This document shows, piece after piece, positions 2,742 to 36,511 of a stretch of 64,000 nt of DNA. A program made the position numbers and the translations under genes. The notes under the pieces were generated by a model. The model made no database searches. It was not told where the DNA came from and saw only the letters and a program-made list of their open reading frames with translations. This DNA is from Escherichia coli (GTDB lineage Bacteria; Pseudomonadota; Gammaproteobacteria; Enterobacterales; Enterobacteriaceae). Location of the stretch: the NCBI RefSeq assembly GCF_003334355.1, contig NZ_QOWP01000005.1. One strand, written 5' to 3'. The stretch's first letter is position 1. Every line of letters begins with the position of its first letter.

Positions 2742-3620
2742 TTACAGCAAACCGGCATGCTTAAGCGCCGCTCTGACCGTCTCACGACCACTGTCGGTGA
2801 TTGGTGTCATTGGCAGGCGCAGCGTATCGGTCGCCACAAGACCCAGTTCCTTACATGCCCATTTCACCGGGATTGGATTGGGTTCGACAAATAGTTTGTT
2901 GTGTAATGGCATCAGACGCTGATTAATAACGCGTGCCTCGGCAAAATGCCCTTCTGCTGCCAGTTTGCACATCTGGGCCATATCACGCGCTGCGACGTTA
3001 GCCGTAACGGAAATAACCCCATGACCGCCTAATTGCATGAAGTCCAGCGCGCTCGCATCATCGCCGCTCAGCAGAACAAAATCATCTGAAACCAGCTCTT
3101 TGATCTGGTTTACACGCGTTAAGTTCCCTGTTGCCTCTTTGATTCCGATAATATTTTTTACTTTCGCCAGACGGCCCACCGTTTCCGGGAGCAGATCGCA
3201 GCCAGTACGGGACGGCACATTATACAGAATTTGCGGCAGGTCAGTATGCTCAGCGATGGCTTTGAAATGCTGATACAAACCTTCTTGCGACGGACGATTG
3301 TAGTAAGGGGTTACCGTCAGGCAGCCGACGATACCACTGTCATTGAAGCGCTGCGTCAGGCTAATGGCTTCCGCAGTAGCGTTAGCGCCGGTCCCGGCAA
3401 TTACCGGAATGCGCCCATCAGCCAGATCCAGCGTCATCATCACCACATCAGCATGTTCGTCATGATTTAAGGTAGCGGACTCGCCAGTGGTGCCAACAGA
3501 AACGATCGCCGAAGTACCGCTGGCGACATGATAATCAATCAGTTTTTTCAAGCTAGCCCGACAGACATTACCTTTTTCATCCATCGGAGTAACAATCGCG
3601 ACAATACTTCCCGTGAACAT
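2742..3620 (-). CDS. dapA: 4-hydroxy-tetrahydrodipicolinate synthase
   Basis: ORF 2742..3638; start at internal Met ([19 protein letters not shown]...) gives 292 aa; GTTGES motif present. Confidence 0.95.
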
Positions 3621-26948: not shown

Positions 26949-30561
<3,613 letters not shown>

Positions 30562-30565
30562 TGCT

Positions 30566-30599
30566 TTGCGGGCCGACGAGAAATGTCGGCCCGCATTAT
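30566..30599. terminator. Bidirectional intrinsic terminator between convergent ppx and pdeF
   Basis: Hairpin gcgggccgac-gagaaat-gtcggcccgc flanked by T/A-rich sequence, filling the 38-bp convergent gap. Confidence 0.65.
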
Positions 30600-32843
30600 T
30601 CAGGCACTTTCGCGAATGGGTTCGATTTCATTCAACGTATCAATTAACGGCTGCGGCTTACCAATAAGATAACCCTGCATATAATCGATCCCCAAAGAGA
30701 GCACCGCCTCGCGGATCTCTTCGTTTTCAACGTACTCTGCCACTACCCGCATTTTCTTCATTCGCGCCAGGTGGCAAATCGATGCCACTATCTGATAATC
30801 CAGACTATTTGACACAATATTGCGGATAAAACTGCCGTCAATTTTAAGCAGATCGGCATTCACATTTTTAAGCCGCGCATAGCTGGCGTAGCCGGTGCCG
30901 AAATCATCAATCGCAATCTGGCAGCCTAATTCCTGAAGATGCTGCAAGGTGATTTGCGCCTGCTTAACATTGGTCAGAGCATTACTTTCGGTGACTTCAA
31001 AAATAAGTTGCCACGCTTCAATCTGATATTTAGCCAGCAACTGACTGACTTCAACAGGAAAACGAGCCTGACATACCGAGGTTGGAGACAGATTAATAGC
31101 AAAACGGTGAGCGGGCATCTTCGCTCTGTTTTCAGCCATAAATTGCAGCGTATGCTCAATGACCCACATGTCGATACTCGACGATAAACCAAATTCGTGC
31201 GCGACCGGCAAGAAGCTATCGGGGCTGATCAGTTCATCATTCTCACCTTTCATGCGCAGAAGAATTTCATGGTAAACATCACCACGCATACCGGTAATCG
31301 GCTGGGCCATCAGGAAAAAATGGTTGTGTTCCAGCGCCTGCTGTAGTCGATTCATCATCGCGACTTTATCTTTCAATTCGCGTTGCAAATACATTGCCCC
31401 GCGACGCTGCATATTTTCCGGGGCGTTGGTCACGATGGAAAGTTCGGCGACCGTATTTAGCTCTCCCAGCAGCAGGTAGATATGATTCACTGGCGAGCGC
31501 ACATAGCAGTAACTGACGCCAATCTGCGGTTGCATCGGCATGCCATCCCAAAAGAAACGAAATTGCTTGAGATGGCTATCCAGTGCGGTAATGCGCTCCT
31601 GGTGCGATTCTGTATTCAGTCGCAGCGCGAGATCGTTACCCGAAAGCTGATAAACATCTTCACCCGGTTCCAGCAAGGGTGACAGCCAGTGAGAAAGTTT
31701 TTGCTTGTATTGAATCCGCAGCATGATGCCATAGTTCTTAACCAGCATTTCCATGCCAGGGATGCGTAAATAACAAAGCGCAGACCAGGGGGCATCACGC
31801 AACGCGCGATTCAGGGCGCGAACATTTGGCAGATGAACCACCGGGTCCACATACGCAAGCCGCTGAATGCGTCTGACTACCGCTCTCTGACGGGTTGCCA
31901 GTACAGCCATATAATTGACAATAAAAGAGAATACCAGATAACTGGAGGAGGTTATGGCCAGCTGCGTGGTATAGCCAGGATAAATGGGAATGTAATTTTG
32001 ATAGCTGTGGATGCTGATCATCAACACGACCGCCCAGAGCAGCGAAATCAGCTTATAACCATAGCGCATCGCTCCCCACATCATCAGGGGCAGCAATAAT
32101 GACAAGGTATAATTGGTGCTAAAAATTGTGCTTTTTTCATTTAACGGCATGCATAACAGCAACAATAAAGCACCTAATGCCAGTAGCCAGAGCGCGAACT
32201 CTTTTTTGGTGACTTTGGCATCAACCTGCTGTTTTAATTGCGAATAATAGCTACGTAAATAAAATGGATTTCGCACTACCCGAATGATGAAGTAGCACAG
32301 CGGGACACCGATCAGATTACCCACCAGTAAGGCCTGATAATTGATTAAAGTCCCGAGGTTAAAAGGCATGACACCGACCAGATTTTCTCTGCTCGCCAGT
32401 AATCCTACAAATGCAGCAAACTGGAAAAGTATCAGAAACAGCGTTGCAGGAAACACAATCTGCCAGAATATACGCTGGGAAATTAAACGGGTATCACCAT
32501 GTGAAACGTTGTTACGCCGGGGAGTAAAGACCCTGTAACCGCCCCAACAGAGAATGATAATGATAATAAAATTAGCCGTTAATGATAGCGTTTCGTAAAA
32601 ACCCAGCTCTGCATATTTGCGGACAAAAATCCCTAAGGCGATCCCTGGCAATGCCGCCCAGCTGAAAAACATCATCATGCTGATCATCAGTGCCAGAGGC
32701 AGATAAAAGAGAAAAACCTCACCGGAAGAAATATGCGCGAAAGTATTAATGTGGGCGAAAATGGGCAAGATTAAAGAAGGCAGGAACAGCGGAAGCCCCC
32801 ACCATTTATCACGTATTTTTATATAAGTTGCATTCAGTTTCAT
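30600..32843 (-). CDS. pdeF: Membrane-anchored cyclic-di-GMP phosphodiesterase (MASE1 / degenerate GGDEF / EAL)
   Basis: 747-aa ORF MKLNATYIKIRDKWWGLPLFLPSLILPIF... with N-terminal polytopic membrane domain and C-terminal EAL-type domain; I recognise it as YfgF/PdeF. Confidence 0.9.
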   Translation of the reverse strand: MKLNATYIKIRDKWWGLPLFLPSLILPIFAHINTFAHISSGEVFLFYLPLALMISMMMFFSWAALPGIALGIFVRKYAELGFYETLSLTANFIIIIILCWGGYRVFTPRRNNVSHGDTRLISQRIFWQIVFPATLFLILFQFAAFVGLLASRENLVGVMPFNLGTLINYQALLVGNLIGVPLCYFIIRVVRNPFYLRSYYSQLKQQVDAKVTKKEFALWLLALGALLLLLCMPLNEKSTIFSTNYTLSLLLPLMMWGAMRYGYKLISLLWAVVLMISIHSYQNYIPIYPGYTTQLAITSSSYLVFSFIVNYMAVLATRQRAVVRRIQRLAYVDPVVHLPNVRALNRALRDAPWSALCYLRIPGMEMLVKNYGIMLRIQYKQKLSHWLSPLLEPGEDVYQLSGNDLALRLNTESHQERITALDSHLKQFRFFWDGMPMQPQIGVSYCYVRSPVNHIYLLLGELNTVAELSIVTNAPENMQRRGAMYLQRELKDKVAMMNRLQQALEHNHFFLMAQPITGMRGDVYHEILLRMKGENDELISPDSFLPVAHEFGLSSSIDMWVIEHTLQFMAENRAKMPAHRFAINLSPTSVCQARFPVEVSQLLAKYQIEAWQLIFEVTESNALTNVKQAQITLQHLQELGCQIAIDDFGTGYASYARLKNVNADLLKIDGSFIRNIVSNSLDYQIVASICHLARMKKMRVVAEYVENEEIREAVLSLGIDYMQGYLIGKPQPLIDTLNEIEPIRESA

Positions 32844-33194
32844 AGATGCTCAGCAGAATCCCCCACATCCTGAAGGAGGTGTATTCAGACAGGCATCCCA
32901 CCTGACTTCGAATGATGATTATTCATCACTATAGAGAGCATTGATTCTAAGTGTCATATGAAAGTACCAATTGATATATATCAAACAAAATAACCCTGAT
33001 TAATGAATTATTACGTTTATCATGTTAATTCATCATTATTACATCATCATTGTAAATAATTAAATTAACTTCCATAACATTAAAATATGTATCCACTGAC
33101 GCTTTTTTACATAACGAAGAATTGACCATTTTGTCCTGTTGTGCCTTAATGTAAGTACCGTCCACAGCGTGGGACATACTTCAAGGAACCTTTT

Positions 33195-33386
33195 GTGAGT
33201 CAGGCAACCAGTATGCGAAAACGACACCGATTTAACAGTCGCATGACCCGTATCGTACTGCTCATCAGCTTTATCTTCTTCTTTGGCCGTTTTATCTACT
33301 CGTCCGTCGGTGCCTGGCAGCACCATCAGAGCAAAAAAGAAGCTCAGCAATCCACACTCTCCGTCGAATCACCGGTACAACGTTAG
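33195..33386 (+). CDS. yfgG: Small membrane protein YfgG (63 aa)
   Basis: GTG-start ORF (M)SQATSMRKRHRFNSRMTRIVLLISFIFFFGRFIYS... in an AT-rich intergenic region; single TM helix. Confidence 0.75.
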   Translation: MSQATSMRKRHRFNSRMTRIVLLISFIFFFGRFIYSSVGAWQHHQSKKEAQQSTLSVESPVQR

Positions 33387-33697
33387 CGGTTACCTTCTCC
33401 ACTTTCACAGAACATAACGGCACTTCGCTGTCGGATGCTTTTGCTCTTTGGGATTATCAAAGCGGCAGATATTCTTTCATCTTAAATTTTACGTCTTTGT
33501 CCTGACTGATGTTTATCCTGTTTGGCTGCGAAATAAATATAAATTAATATATATATGTTGTAATGATATATTTTTATAAATTATTCCCTGCGTGAATTTT
33601 AATAAATTTAATCTATCCCTTTATACGCAATACATTTACTTTCCTCTTTTGATGATCTTAAATGTCTTATTTTTCGTAATGTGTATAACAAGGAATA

Positions 33698-34216
33698 GTG
33701 ATGAAATTTAAAAAATGTCTTCTGCCTGTAGCAATGTTAGCGTCATTCACTCTGGCAGGATGCCAGTCAAATGCTGACGATCATGCCGCCGATGTTTATC
33801 AAACCGATCAACTGAATACCAAACAAGAAACTAAAACCGTTAATATTATTTCCATTCTTCCCGCAAAAGTTGCCGTAGACAACTCCCAAAATAAACGGAA
33901 CGCACAAGCCTTCGGCGCGCTTATTGGCGCAGTCGCTGGCGGTGTTATCGGCCACAACGTCGGTTCTGGCAGCAATTCCGGAACGACGGCAGGGGCAGTT
34001 GGCGGCGGAGCTGTAGGCGCGGCAGCGGGTTCTATGGTGAATGATAAAACCTTAGTGGAAGGTGTTTCTTTAACGTATAAGGAAGGCACCAAAGTGTATA
34101 CCTCCACCCAGGTGGGTAAAGAGTGCCAGTTTACGACAGGTTTAGCCGTTGTTATTACCACGACGTATAACGAAACGCGTATTCAGCCAAATACCAAATG
34201 TCCTGAAAAGAGCTAA
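33698..34216 (+). CDS. yfgH: Outer-membrane lipoprotein YfgH (glycine-zipper protein)
   Basis: 172-aa ORF with lipobox (MMKFKKCLLPVAMLASFTLAGCQS) and the Gly-rich zipper GALIGAVAGGVIGHNVGSGS. Confidence 0.88.
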   Translation: MMKFKKCLLPVAMLASFTLAGCQSNADDHAADVYQTDQLNTKQETKTVNIISILPAKVAVDNSQNKRNAQAFGALIGAVAGGVIGHNVGSGSNSGTTAGAVGGGAVGAAAGSMVNDKTLVEGVSLTYKEGTKVYTSTQVGKECQFTTGLAVVITTTYNETRIQPNTKCPEKS

Positions 34217-34231
34217 TAATCAGGAGGAGTC

Positions 34232-34771
34232 ATGAAGAAAGTTTTTCTTTGCGCCATCTTGGCCTCCTTAAGCTATCCGGCTATCGCCTCATCATTGCAG
34301 GATCAACTCTCGGCTGTCGCAGAAGCGGAACAGCAAGGTAAAAATGAAGAGCAAAAGCAGCATGATGAATGGGTCGCGGAGCGCAACAGGGAAATCCAGC
34401 AAGAGAAGCAACGTCGCGCAAATGCCCAGGCCGCCGCTAACAAAAGAGCGGCAACGGCAGCAGCAAATAAGAAAGCTCGTCAGGATAAACTGGACGCCGA
34501 AGCCTCTGCGGACAAAAAACGCGATCAAAGTTATGAAGATAAGCTACGCAGCTTAGAGATTCAGAAACAAAAACTGGCGCTGGCAAAAGAAGAAGCCCGC
34601 GTTAAGCGAGAAAACGAATTTATCGATCAGGAACTGAAGCACAAAGCTGCGCAAACCGATGTGGTGCAATCTGAAGCTGACGCCAACAGAAATATGACTG
34701 AAGGCGGTCGCGATCTGATGAAAAGCGTGGGCAAAGCAGAAGAGAACAAATCGGACAGCTGGTTTAATTAA
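34232..34771 (+). CDS. yfgI: Secreted, highly charged coiled-coil-like protein YfgI
   Basis: 179-aa ORF with signal peptide (MKKVFLCAILASLSYPAIASSL) and K/E/A/Q-rich low-complexity body. Confidence 0.85.
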   Translation: MKKVFLCAILASLSYPAIASSLQDQLSAVAEAEQQGKNEEQKQHDEWVAERNREIQQEKQRRANAQAAANKRAATAAANKKARQDKLDAEASADKKRDQSYEDKLRSLEIQKQKLALAKEEARVKRENEFIDQELKHKAAQTDVVQSEADANRNMTEGGRDLMKSVGKAEENKSDSWFN

Positions 34772-34808
34772 TCGATGTTAGTAACTTCAAGCCTATGATT
34801 CTTGAAGA

Positions 34809-34841
34809 TAAAAAACCCTCTGTAGTAACAGAGGGTTTTGT
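34809..34841. terminator. Bidirectional intrinsic terminator between convergent yfgI and guaA
   Basis: aaaaaa-ccctctg-tagtaa-cagaggg-tttt: symmetric A-run / hairpin / T-run. Confidence 0.7.
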
Positions 34842-34865
34842 TCATTCATAGTGCAGGGATTAAAA

Positions 34866-36443
34866 TCATTCCCACTCAATGGTAGCTGGCGGCTTGCCGC
34901 TGATGTCATACACCACGCGGGAAATACCGTTCACTTCATTGATAATGCGGTTGGAAACGCGACCGAGGAAATCGTACGGCAGATGCGCCCAGTGTGCGGT
35001 CATAAAGTCGATGGTTTCGACAGCACGCAGAGAGACAACCCAGTCATACTTACGACCATCGCCCATTACGCCAACGGAACGTACCGGCAGGAACACAGTG
35101 AACGCCTGGCTGACTTTGTCGTACAGGTCCGCTTTACGCAGTTCTTCAATGAAGATGGCGTCAGCACGGCGCAGCAGGTCACAGTACTCTTTCTTCACTT
35201 CACCCAGCACACGAACGCCAAGGCCTGGTCCCGGGAATGGGTGACGGTACAACATGTCGTACGGCAGGCCCAGCTCCAGACCAATCTTACGCACTTCGTC
35301 TTTGAACAGCTCTTTCAGCGGTTCAACCAGGTCCATCTTCATCTCTTTCGGCAGGCCGCCCACGTTGTGGTGAGATTTGATGACGTGTGCTTTACCGGTT
35401 GCAGACGCCGCAGATTCGATAACGTCAGGGTAGATGGTGCCCTGCGCCAGCCACTTCACGTCTTCCAGTTTCAGCGCTTCTTCATCGAATACTTCAACGA
35501 AAACGCGACCGATGATTTTACGTTTTGCTTCCGGATCGTTTTCGCCAGCCAGCGCTGACAGGAAGCGATCTTCTGCCGGAACGTGAACAATGTTCAGACC
35601 AAAGTGATCGCCAAACATATCCAGAACCTGCTCTGCTTCGTTGAGACGCAGCAGGCCGTTGTCGACGAATACGCAAGTCAGGTTTTTACCGATAGCGCGG
35701 TGCAGTAGCATTGCGGTTACGGAGGAATCCACGCCACCAGAGAGGCCGAGGATGACTTTATCGTCGCCTACCTGCTCACGGATGCGGGCTACAGCATCGT
35801 CGATAATTTTCGCTGGCGTCCACAGGGCTTCACACTGGCAGATATCACGCACAAAACGCTCCAGCATGCGCATACCCTGGCGGGTGTGAGTCACTTCCGG
35901 GTGGAACTGTACGCCATAGAAGCGTTTTTCTTCGTTAGCCATAATGGCAAACGGGCAGCTTTCGGTGCTGGCTACGGTGACGAAGTCGGACGGGATAGCG
36001 GTAACTTTATCGCCGTGGCTCATCCAGACATCGAGCAGCGGTTTACCGTCTGCGGTCAGCGCATCTTCGATACCGCGAACCAGTGCGCTGTCGTTTACGA
36101 CTTCAACCTGCGCGTAGCCAAATTCACGTTCGTTAGAGGCTTCAACGTGACCGCCCAACTGCATCGCCATGGTCTGCATACCATAGCAAACGCCGAATAC
36201 CGGTACGCCTGCTTCAAAGACATACTGCGGCGCACGCGGACTGTTTTCTTCAGTAGTACTTTCCGGGCCGCCGGAAAGAATAATGCCGCTTGGATTGAAG
36301 TCACGAATTTGTGCTTCTGTCACATCCCACGCCCACAGTTCGCAGTAAACGCCCAGCTCACGCACGCGGCGCGCAACCAGTTGAGTATACTGGGAACCGA
36401 AGTCCAGAATGAGGATGCGATGCTTATGAATGTTTTCCGTCAT
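34866..36443 (-). CDS. guaA: GMP synthase (glutamine-hydrolysing)
   Basis: 525-aa [39 protein letters not shown]... with the PP-loop SGGVDSS. Confidence 0.97.
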
Positions 36444-36511
36444 TGACGCTTATTCCGAGGCAAGTGAAACAGATAATATAAATCGCCCGACATGAAGTCG
36501 GGCGAAGAGAA

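Follow-up and report, generated by a model that had tools for sequence, protein, structure and literature searches.

Two AT-rich spacers around yfgG in Escherichia coli are probably ordinary regulatory DNA, and conserved hairpins in the pdeF mRNA leader suggest a possible CsrA target

The spacer between pdeF (yfgF) and yfgG is itself a listed member (yfgF < HNS > yfgG) of the type-A, HNS-flagged spacers in the genomic SELEX study of Shimada et al. (2014, PMC3946193), in which it carries the 'HNS' flag, in vitro, and an RpoD-holoenzyme site. It shows no difference from the HNS-flagged divergent spacers, being extremely rich in AT and dense in TpA steps, with sigma-70 promoters pointing both ways and with captured IS elements. 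A second spacer, between yfgG and yfgH, resembles them in composition, the nucleation motif being degenerate there. The yfgF (pdeF) promoter was published as a class II FNR promoter, with a site at -41.5 and FNR-dependent anaerobic induction (PMC3718329), and the locus analysed here shows no difference from that class, with a perfect box and a correctly spaced -10 element. Thus, the FNR promoter and the in vitro binding of RNA polymerase and H-NS in the first spacer were already known. Moreover, as the sequence-only reading stated it, namely as an AT-rich patch targeted by nucleoid proteins, the finding has little import, since H-NS-binding AT-rich promoter spacers are commonplace in E. coli.

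The yfgH–yfgI genes downstream can be compared with H-NS-silenced AT-rich islets. They are alike in restricted distribution, low GC content (0.439), an AT-rich promoter edge, a variable junction and a perfect H-NS consensus inside yfgI, but differ in having no mobility genes, tRNA or flanking repeats, and their silencing is putative. The leader of the pdeF mRNA can be compared with CsrA-controlled leaders. Other c-di-GMP enzymes, ycdT and ydeH, are under CsrA control. Like the CsrA leaders of ycdT/dgcT and ydeH/dgcZ, the pdeF leader belongs to a c-di-GMP enzyme, here a phosphodiesterase, and like CsrA sites generally it has two short GGA hairpins (UGGGAUG and CAGGAUGU), 28 nt apart. The candidate sites differ from those of CsrA-controlled leaders in that none lies over the Shine-Dalgarno sequence, and the gene is missing from the CLIP-seq tables examined.

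The window, i.e., the whole 64-kb stretch of DNA that was analysed, belongs to a non-K-12 E. coli chromosome, and its gene order ppx–pdeF–yfgG–yfgH–yfgI–guaA was matched to RefSeq and K-12. The genes around the patch are as follows:

30600-32843, minus strand: pdeF, identity confirmed against RefSeq and K-12
33195-33386, plus strand: yfgG coding sequence, GTG start, 63 aa, a single transmembrane segment, Ni/Co tolerance, GC 0.495
33698-34216: yfgH, identity confirmed against RefSeq and K-12

The composition of the patch was measured against the window by a 200-bp GC scan (mean 0.522, sd 0.05). The GC content of positions 32844-33700 was 0.365 compared with the window mean of 0.522, and the two lowest 200-bp troughs of the 64 kb were located here, reaching 0.24 at 32862-33202 and 0.22 at 33403-33775. 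The AT tracts, ~200 bp each, had GC contents of 0.22-0.26. TpA steps reached 22 and 26 per 150 bp, the two highest densities of the window (6.2 ± 2.8), and the three longest runs of A/T only in the window were found at 33531-33556, 33566-33585 and 33595-33612. These results confirmed the AT-richness noticed in the sequence-only reading, which is more extreme than anywhere else in the 64 kb. However, what had been described as one continuous patch of ~850 bp is AT-rich in two parts, 32844-33194 and 33387-33697, which are split by yfgG with its normal composition. The neighbourhood had been called GC-rich, but pdeF (0.467), yfgH (0.474) and yfgI (0.487) are all below the window mean. The string quoted as lying at 33535-33580 was found at 33532-33575, and the simple repeats turned out to be no more than weak arrays of low complexity, namely 2.5 copies of a period of 10, (TA)5 and 1.9 copies of a period of 11. 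The statement that yfgG is the sole coding content agrees with the annotation of K-12, to which nothing is added, but not with that of most strains, for which PGAP adds a 50-aa protein.

On the evidence observed here, that is composition, gene order, the conservation pattern, motifs and IS insertions, we consider the patch to be two ordinary AT-rich regulatory spacers flanking yfgG, with no hidden gene (probability about 0.75). The features of the first spacer are listed below:

32844-33194: pdeF–yfgG divergent intergenic region, 351 bp, GC 0.342, the first AT-rich trough
32971-32984: FNR box TTGATATATATCAA (TTGAT-N4-ATCAA), the sole match in the 64 kb
32944-32949, minus strand: pdeF -10 element TAGAAT, kept across genera
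32985-33119: AT-rich spacer between the divergent promoters, 135 bp, GC 0.237, with partly conserved blocks
33122-33150, plus strand: yfgG promoter, TTGACC, 17-nt spacer and CTTAAT with TG upstream, transcription start at ~33158

Across the ~15 enterobacterial genera sampled, the divergent region almost always measured 338-366 bp, with a shorter form of 312-313 bp in three Pluralibacter-type loci. The FNR box was kept in 16 of 17 aligned genera, and the pdeF -10 element sits 28-33 nt from its centre, which fits a transcription start at ~32936 under the geometry given in PMC3718329. By the FNR box and the -10 element, their match to the published class II promoter and their conservation across genera, the expectation that the upstream flank carries the oxygen-regulated pdeF promoter was borne out. 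On the opposite side, the yfgG promoter block AATTGACC...CTTAAT was invariant across 17 genera in the alignment, and the GTG start of yfgG and its AAGGA ribosome-binding site were conserved in the cross-genus alignment. Identical yfgG promoter hexamers were given in the genomic SELEX paper (PMC3946193), and a sigma-S ChIP-seq peak was located in the same spacer, with a validated transcription start inside (PMC4447067); the window coordinate of this start comes from our own conversion and is good to ~5 nt. The AT spacer between the promoters also appears in the PgrR SELEX list. The density of promoter-like sites in the patch was no higher than local composition predicts.

We propose that the first spacer is an ancient divergent promoter region, which has probably stayed at ~350 bp throughout the Enterobacteriaceae. 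Under anaerobiosis, FNR at -41.5 would switch on pdeF leftwards, while the sigma-70/sigma-S promoter, invariant in every genus, would drive yfgG rightwards. The 135 bp of AT-rich DNA in between may serve RNA polymerase and H-NS as a generic landing site, and H-NS would be expected to dampen both promoters. Furthermore, the invariant yfgG promoter is a starting point in the search for what regulates this Ni/Co-tolerance gene.

The second spacer lies within a longer lineage-specific segment, with the following features:

33387-33697: yfgG–yfgH intergenic region, 311 bp, GC 0.309, the second AT-rich trough
33531-33612: hypervariable core of A/T only, with runs of 26, 20 and 18 nt and length polymorphism of an A run and a TA repeat
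33635-33663, plus strand: candidate yfgH promoter, TTTACT, 17-nt spacer and TTAAAT
33387-34809: lineage-specific segment of AT spacer, yfgH and yfgI, ~1.4 kb, GC 0.439
34810-34841: conserved bidirectional terminator adjoining guaA, the far junction of the segment

Among the 37 loci, yfgH–yfgI was found only in Escherichia and Citrobacter amalonaticus, a restricted distribution at a conserved junction such as horizontally acquired islets show, and AT-rich DNA 3' of yfgG was seen only where yfgH–yfgI is present. In a Citrobacter sp. (L008) the terminator hairpin is located directly 3' of yfgG, and the hairpin also occurs in L031 and L032. No flanking direct repeats, mobility genes (as ORFs) or tRNA target were found around the segment, and its distribution may reflect either a gain in Escherichia or a loss elsewhere. 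The second AT spacer and yfgH–yfgI thus travel together, forming one lineage-specific segment at a junction that is variable. Apart from the ribosome-binding site, the candidate yfgH promoter was the sole conserved block of the second spacer in the Escherichia species and C. amalonaticus. We therefore picture the second spacer as the upstream region of yfgH–yfgI, inside a segment that lies between yfgG and a terminator otherwise shared with guaA. Its A/T core would be weakly constrained and slippage-prone, and conservation is confined to the last ~80 nt, with the putative promoter and the ribosome-binding site.

With respect to nucleoid proteins, both troughs are tracts of the H-NS type, i.e., at least ~100 bp long, markedly AT-rich and TpA-rich. 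The claim that the patch is a target of H-NS held for the pdeF–yfgG spacer, in vitro only (genomic SELEX); binding at the second spacer may be expected from its composition, as may silencing in vivo. The high-affinity nucleation consensus of H-NS, reportedly defined by Lang et al. in 2007, is TCGATAAATT. With this consensus, just two matches were found in the patch, at 33573 and 33599, with two mismatches each, and a perfect match was found outside the patch, inside yfgI (34617-34626). The count over the whole window was 75 matches compared with 57 ± 8 expected, which is weak and not a clear enrichment. An IS1 insertion was found in each trough, and in a gallium-evolved K-12 population an IS5 was located at K-12 position 2,629,042, corresponding to ~32947 in the window, at the pdeF -10 element (PMC6928379). 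IS elements may be drawn to both troughs as they are to H-NS-bound AT-rich DNA. The gallium-selection hit also prompted a comparison of the first spacer's dyads with the Fur box; the match of 12/19 was at chance for this composition.

The AT-richness may have no function by itself, at least in the second spacer, having arisen by AT-biased mutation and slippage or as a foreign relic, with protein binding incidental. We hold this to be possible but rather doubtful. Nowhere in the locus is conservation lower than in the AT core of the second spacer: positions 33520-33610 diverge fast, with indels, even among Escherichia, the differences between strains map to the A run and the TA repeat, and the exact allele of this strain was present in 0 of 5,426 genomes. 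The share of E. coli genomes with identical sequence was 99.5% for the pdeF leader, 78% for the first AT spacer and 0% for the second AT core. The low GC content of the entire lineage-specific segment points in the same direction. However, AT-rich DNA upstream of promoters is commonly an UP element or a curved-DNA element, the first spacer holds its length over ~15 genera and has conserved blocks, H-NS and RNA polymerase bind it in vitro, and FlhDC SELEX has a peak, though a weak one, in the second spacer. A different possibility is that the patch conceals a gene for an unannotated small protein or RNA, one candidate being the ORF that PGAP adds:

33025-33177, minus strand: 50-aa ORF WP_000017552.1, PGAP hypothetical protein, judged here to be a non-gene

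It was annotated by RefSeq/PGAP in most E. coli strains, is absent from the K-12 annotation and is intact in three divergent Escherichia lineages, and the second spacer holds more ORFs, of 39-43 aa. But the 50-aa ORF overlaps the yfgG promoter, and its residual similarity follows promoter conservation; it has stops in both Citrobacter and Kluyvera, E. albertii has a truncated form, and within Escherichia 10-18% of its amino acids change. Likewise, the repeat polymorphism shifts the frame of the 43-aa ORF in K-12, and stops occur in the 39-aa ORF of other Escherichia. When ten candidate small ORFs of 21-96 aa were searched in 39 loci by tblastn, all were interrupted or absent outside Escherichia, and several were broken within it. 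A scan of 30000-36500 on both strands with Rfam 15 (E ≤ 1) gave no relevant match, and there was no convincing terminator to delimit a small RNA. Together with the hypervariability of the AT core, these results spoke against the suggestion of unannotated small ORFs or RNAs, and a hidden gene is very improbable. The PGAP call between pdeF and yfgG is very likely false, and it has spread to thousands of genomes in RefSeq.

The most constrained element of the locus is the leader of the pdeF mRNA, which is not AT-rich. Its features are as follows:

32844-32936, minus strand: pdeF 5' leader, ~93 nt, GC 0.46, the start placed by the -10 element and by the FNR box at -41.5 (PMC3718329)
32911-32930, minus strand: H1, 5'-terminal leader hairpin, AGUGAUGA-AUAA-UCAUCAUU
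32888-32906, minus strand: H2, hairpin CAGG-UGGGAUG-CCUG, with GGA in the loop
32860-32878, minus strand: H3, hairpin of 5 bp, loop UCAGGAUGU, with GGA in the loop

Covariance model R1 detected the leader exactly once per locus in 36/36 loci, and 5,382 of the 5,408 E. coli genomes (99.5%) shared an identical 67-nt core of the leader, with no second copy found elsewhere in E. coli genomes. The covariance-model alignment was used for the analysis of the hairpins, since RNAalifold on the raw MAFFT alignment was uninformative owing to register shifts. H3 showed compensatory double changes in 5/5 pairs, with 90.9% of the cells paired, and its score was reached by 0 of 500 shuffles. In the present sequence H3 has two G.U pairs, which pair only in the minus-strand RNA. 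The loop of H3 contained GGA in 31 of the 34 distinct sequences, although the bases on either side of it varied. H2 was nearly invariant, with GGA in the loop of 32/34 distinct sequences, and its covariation was uninformative because its sequence barely varies. Single-sequence folds of the leader, the yfgG 5' UTR and the yfgG 3' region were unremarkable (z from -1.2 to +1.1).

The one fresh detail of this locus is that the pdeF mRNA has a conserved leader with hairpins, whose features suggest a candidate CsrA target. It is conceivable, and we put it forward as a tentative reading, that this leader rather than the AT-rich DNA is functionally most important, through post-transcriptional control by CsrA on the two GGA-loop hairpins. 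A CsrA leader is expected to have at least two GGA sites in loops ~10-63 nt apart, and H2 and H3 provide such a pair, since both loops contained GGA in 30 of 34 distinct sequences, with the motifs 28 nt apart. The covariation of H3, the single-copy nature and near-identity of the leader in E. coli, and the CsrA control of the other c-di-GMP enzymes argue for this reading. On the other side, no GGA overlaps the weak Shine-Dalgarno region or the start codon (the region GAGCAUCUAUG has no GGA, and the nearest one is at -18 to -16), yfgF is missing from the examined supplements of CLIP-seq and transcriptomic work on CsrA in E. coli and Salmonella, which used aerobic cultures, and our literature search gave no link of CsrA to yfgF/pdeF. 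Moreover, the alignment that gave the covariation was model-fitted, and the transcription start was placed from promoter elements. If CsrA binds the leader, there would be an extra post-transcriptional layer on the anaerobic control of c-di-GMP.

Two further elements of the leader were considered and rejected. A long-range pairing of UGGAUGC with GCAUCUA, by which the pdeF start codon would be occluded, was 87% complementary but showed no compensatory changes, and some substitutions in it were left uncompensated; the ATG of a mini-ORF in H2 (AUG-CCU-GUC-UGA) was not conserved. Taken as a whole, the leader may possibly be an undescribed regulatory RNA conserved family-wide, in which H2 and H3 would serve as CsrA sites and H1 as an mRNA stabiliser, placing PdeF under Csr in addition to FNR. 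The sequence of H1 varied among genera, while the hairpin was mostly retained, with a mean folding z of -0.91 over the 34 distinct sequences (phylogeny uncorrected).

The interval 32844-33700, between pdeF (yfgF, encoding an FNR-regulated c-di-GMP phosphodiesterase) and yfgH, consists of AT-rich regulatory spacers of an ordinary and already known kind. The first spacer contains the pdeF promoter, which depends on FNR, and is documented to bind H-NS and RNA polymerase in vitro; the second is the fast-evolving upstream region of the lineage-specific yfgH-yfgI segment. The sequence-only reading was correct as an observation and half right as an interpretation. The single element that might repay experiment is the pdeF leader, which is conserved and structured and has GGA loops.

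The chromosome segment is E. coli but non-K-12: over 32600-33900, six substitutions and two small indels set it apart from K-12, and one base from its best matches. Genes run in the order ppk-ppx-pdeF(yfgF)-yfgG-yfgH-yfgI-guaA. As claimed, the interval is conspicuously AT-rich, with a GC content of 0.365 where the window averages 0.522. Of all 200-bp segments in the 64 kb, the two lowest in GC lie here (0.24 and 0.22; window sd 0.05), as do the top two peaks in TpA-step density and the three longest runs of pure A/T. The interval is not uniform, however, since two intergenic troughs are split by yfgG, a small membrane-protein gene. The neighbourhood, described as GC-rich, was found to consist of slightly AT-rich genes, the simple repeats were present but were merely short low-complexity arrays, and the A/T string quoted at 33535-33580 lies at 33532-33575.

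Features of the pdeF-guaA interval
32844-33194: first spacer, between pdeF and yfgG; GC 0.342, core about 0.26
32949-32944, minus strand: pdeF -10 element TAGAAT, conserved block
32971-32984: FNR box TTGATATATATCAA, conserved block, sole such site in the window
33120-33150: yfgG promoter AATTGACC-N17-CTTAAT, invariant in 17 of 17 aligned genera
between the spacers: yfgG coding sequence; GC 0.495, ordinary composition
33387-33697: second spacer, between yfgG and yfgH; GC 0.309, core about 0.25
33635-33663: candidate yfgH promoter TTTACT-N17-TTAAAT, conserved, followed by AAGGAATAGTGATG
34810-34841: bidirectional terminator

For comparison, 37 YfgG-encoding loci from about 15 enterobacterial genera were used. 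The divergent arrangement of ppx-pdeF and yfgG was kept in all 37, with a near-constant spacer of 338-366 bp (312-313 bp in three Pluralibacter-type loci), whose GC was lowest in Escherichia (0.34) and reached 0.51 elsewhere. Conserved blocks were clear in the 17-genus alignment of this spacer. The FNR box and the TAGAAT -10 agree with the published yfgF class II promoter, with its box at -41.5 (PMC3718329). The predicted oxygen-regulated pdeF promoter is thus in place, and this spacing puts the pdeF transcription start near 32936. Downstream of the yfgG promoter, the AAGGA ribosome-binding site is also conserved and precedes the GTG start codon. Genomic SELEX with the RpoD holoenzyme recovered exactly this spacer with the same yfgG hexamers, and the spacer is flagged there for an H-NS SELEX site (PMC3946193), so the proposed nucleoid-protein target holds for the first spacer, in vitro. 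A sigma-S ChIP-seq peak and a validated yfgG transcription start also fall in this spacer (PMC4447067); by our own coordinate conversion the start is at about 33158. The spacer is also among the PgrR SELEX targets. The stretch between the two promoters, 32985-33119, is 135 bp long with a GC of 0.237.

The first spacer contains two similar 21-nt dyad-like sequences at a distance of 107 bp, ATGATGATTATTCATCACTAT (32912-32932) and ATCATGTTAATTCATCATTAT (33019-33039), and the former overlies leader hairpin H1. A Fur box was excluded as their identity, as neither fits. Of all Fur-box-like matches in the window, the best (32550-32568, 15/19, GAGAATGATAATGATAATA) is inside the MASE1 region of the pdeF coding sequence and is probably an effect of codon composition. 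At the head of the short yfgG 5' UTR (33157-33194, plus strand) is a small hairpin, which reads GUCCAC-AGC-GUGGGAC in E. coli; other genera have CGCCC...GGGUA.

The claim that yfgG is the sole coding content holds for the K-12 annotation, while most non-K-12 strains carry an additional RefSeq/PGAP entry, a 50-aa "hypothetical protein" (WP_000017552.1; minus strand, 33025-33177). This ORF shares DNA with the yfgG promoter; stops interrupt it in both Citrobacter and Kluyvera, and the E. albertii version is truncated. From this overlap and the lack of conservation outside Escherichia, it is likely a systematic false gene call present in thousands of E. coli genomes. A 43-aa ORF (33448-33579) is frameshifted in K-12, and a 39-aa ORF (33592-33711) meets stops in other Escherichia. 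The suggested hidden small ORFs were thus not supported, and neither were sRNAs in the patch, where no Rfam match was obtained; the hairpins 3' of yfgG are weak.

The 93-nt pdeF leader (32844-32936, minus strand) has a GC of 0.46 and is not AT-rich. No part of the region is more constrained, and in the RNA sense it can be read as three hairpins.

Hairpins of the pdeF leader
32930-32911: H1, 5'-terminal, genus-specific (GAUGA/UCAUC in Escherichia, CCGCG/CGCGG in Kluyvera)
32906-32888: H2, CAGG-UGGGAUG-CCUG, nearly invariant
32878-32860: H3, 5-bp stem with loop UCAGGAUGU

A covariance model trained on seven sequences recovered the H2-H3-start block exactly once per locus in 36 of 36 loci (17-94 bits). 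H3 showed compensatory double changes in 5/5 pairs with 90.9% of cells paired, a covariation reached by 0 of 500 shuffles, and pairing over the structure as a whole fell from 86% to 60% or less when the partners were slid, in an alignment that was itself fitted to the covariance model. The mean folding z-score of H1 was -0.91 (34 sequences). A long-range pairing of the H2 loop with the start-codon region was rejected, as its substitutions were uncompensated and did not covary.

Of 34 distinct sequences, 30 have GGA in the loops of both H2 and H3, with variable loop bases around it. GGA conserved in hairpin loops with variable flanks is a signature of CsrA sites, and from this sequence pattern the two loops are tentative candidates for CsrA binding. 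We consider this doubtful, since no GGA overlaps the weak pdeF Shine-Dalgarno region and yfgF is absent from the searched CsrA CLIP-seq and transcriptome supplements, although those cultures were aerobic. A literature search for a link between CsrA and yfgF/pdeF found no paper.

Constraint within E. coli was measured with equal 67-nt probes against 5,426 complete genomes.

Probe conservation
32844-32910: pdeF leader, identical in 5,382/5,408 genomes
33020-33086: first AT spacer, identical in 4,221/5,416 genomes
33520-33586: second AT core, identical in 0 genomes; best 98.5%, only 4,174 genomes matched at all

The gradient is steep, from the leader through the first spacer to the second core, where an A run and a TA repeat differ in length between the window strain and K-12. 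The best match to this core differs by a one-base A-run indel near 33540, and either a real, unique allele or a sequencing error in the homopolymer could account for this.

Insertion sequences were found in the second spacer (IS1A, strain 19SZHZ869Rt) and on the yfgG -35 element (IS1B, strain LH13-b). In a gallium-evolved K-12 population, IS5 was reported at a frequency of 0.5 at position 2,629,042 (PMC6928379), which maps to about window position 32947, on the pdeF -10. Matches split over two places were about ten times commoner for the patch (59 extra places, 50 genomes below 80% coverage) than for a pdeF-internal stretch of the same length (5 and 4), by a rough measure that counts insertions, deletions and divergent alleles together; the yfgH-yfgI segment was also often split (45 and 30). 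Within the pdeF coding-sequence stretch 31000-31856, four E. coli strains carry IS1A, apparently at one site, so some lineages have a disrupted pdeF.

Among the 37 loci, yfgH-yfgI is confined to Escherichia species and Citrobacter amalonaticus. The GC downstream of yfgG is 0.27-0.31 only where these genes are present and otherwise 0.38-0.64. Without them, the yfgG-guaA interval may be as short as 63-114 bp or exceed 3 kb, with unrelated cargo. This cargo differs in almost every genus (loci L007-L038, from about locus position 3190), from nothing to over 3 kb of unrelated ORFs. In a Citrobacter sp. (L008), a bidirectional terminator, AAAAAACCCTCTG...CAGAGGGTTTTGT, lies directly 3' of yfgG and is common to the convergent guaA. 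Since the E. coli copy is at 34810-34841, about 1.4 kb intervenes there (33387-34809, GC 0.439). The junction is a variable integration spot adjoining this conserved terminator; no flanking repeats or mobility genes marking 33387-34809 were found. Conservation in the second spacer is limited to its yfgH-proximal end, and its A/T core has diverged, indels included, within Escherichia itself.

In C. amalonaticus (L039), pdeF matched as four frame-shifted pieces (419-2651) and the yfgG ORF (3001-3306) is extended to 101 aa, reflecting either pseudogenes or assembly indel errors. For yfgH-yfgI (33900-34756) the window strain has a minority allele, with at least 99% identity in 333/5,420 genomes versus about 3,200-3,600 for neighbouring segments, which suggests higher diversity or recombination. 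The H-NS high-affinity consensus TCGATAAATT is matched perfectly inside yfgI (34617-34626, minus strand) and with one mismatch at the 3' end of that gene (34766-34775, minus strand), both outside the patch and within the lineage-specific segment. Genomic SELEX with FlhDC gave a weak peak at about 33517 (K-12 U00096.2 2,627,634) in the second spacer, assigned to yfgHI (PMC9962212), which may reflect generic AT-rich binding.
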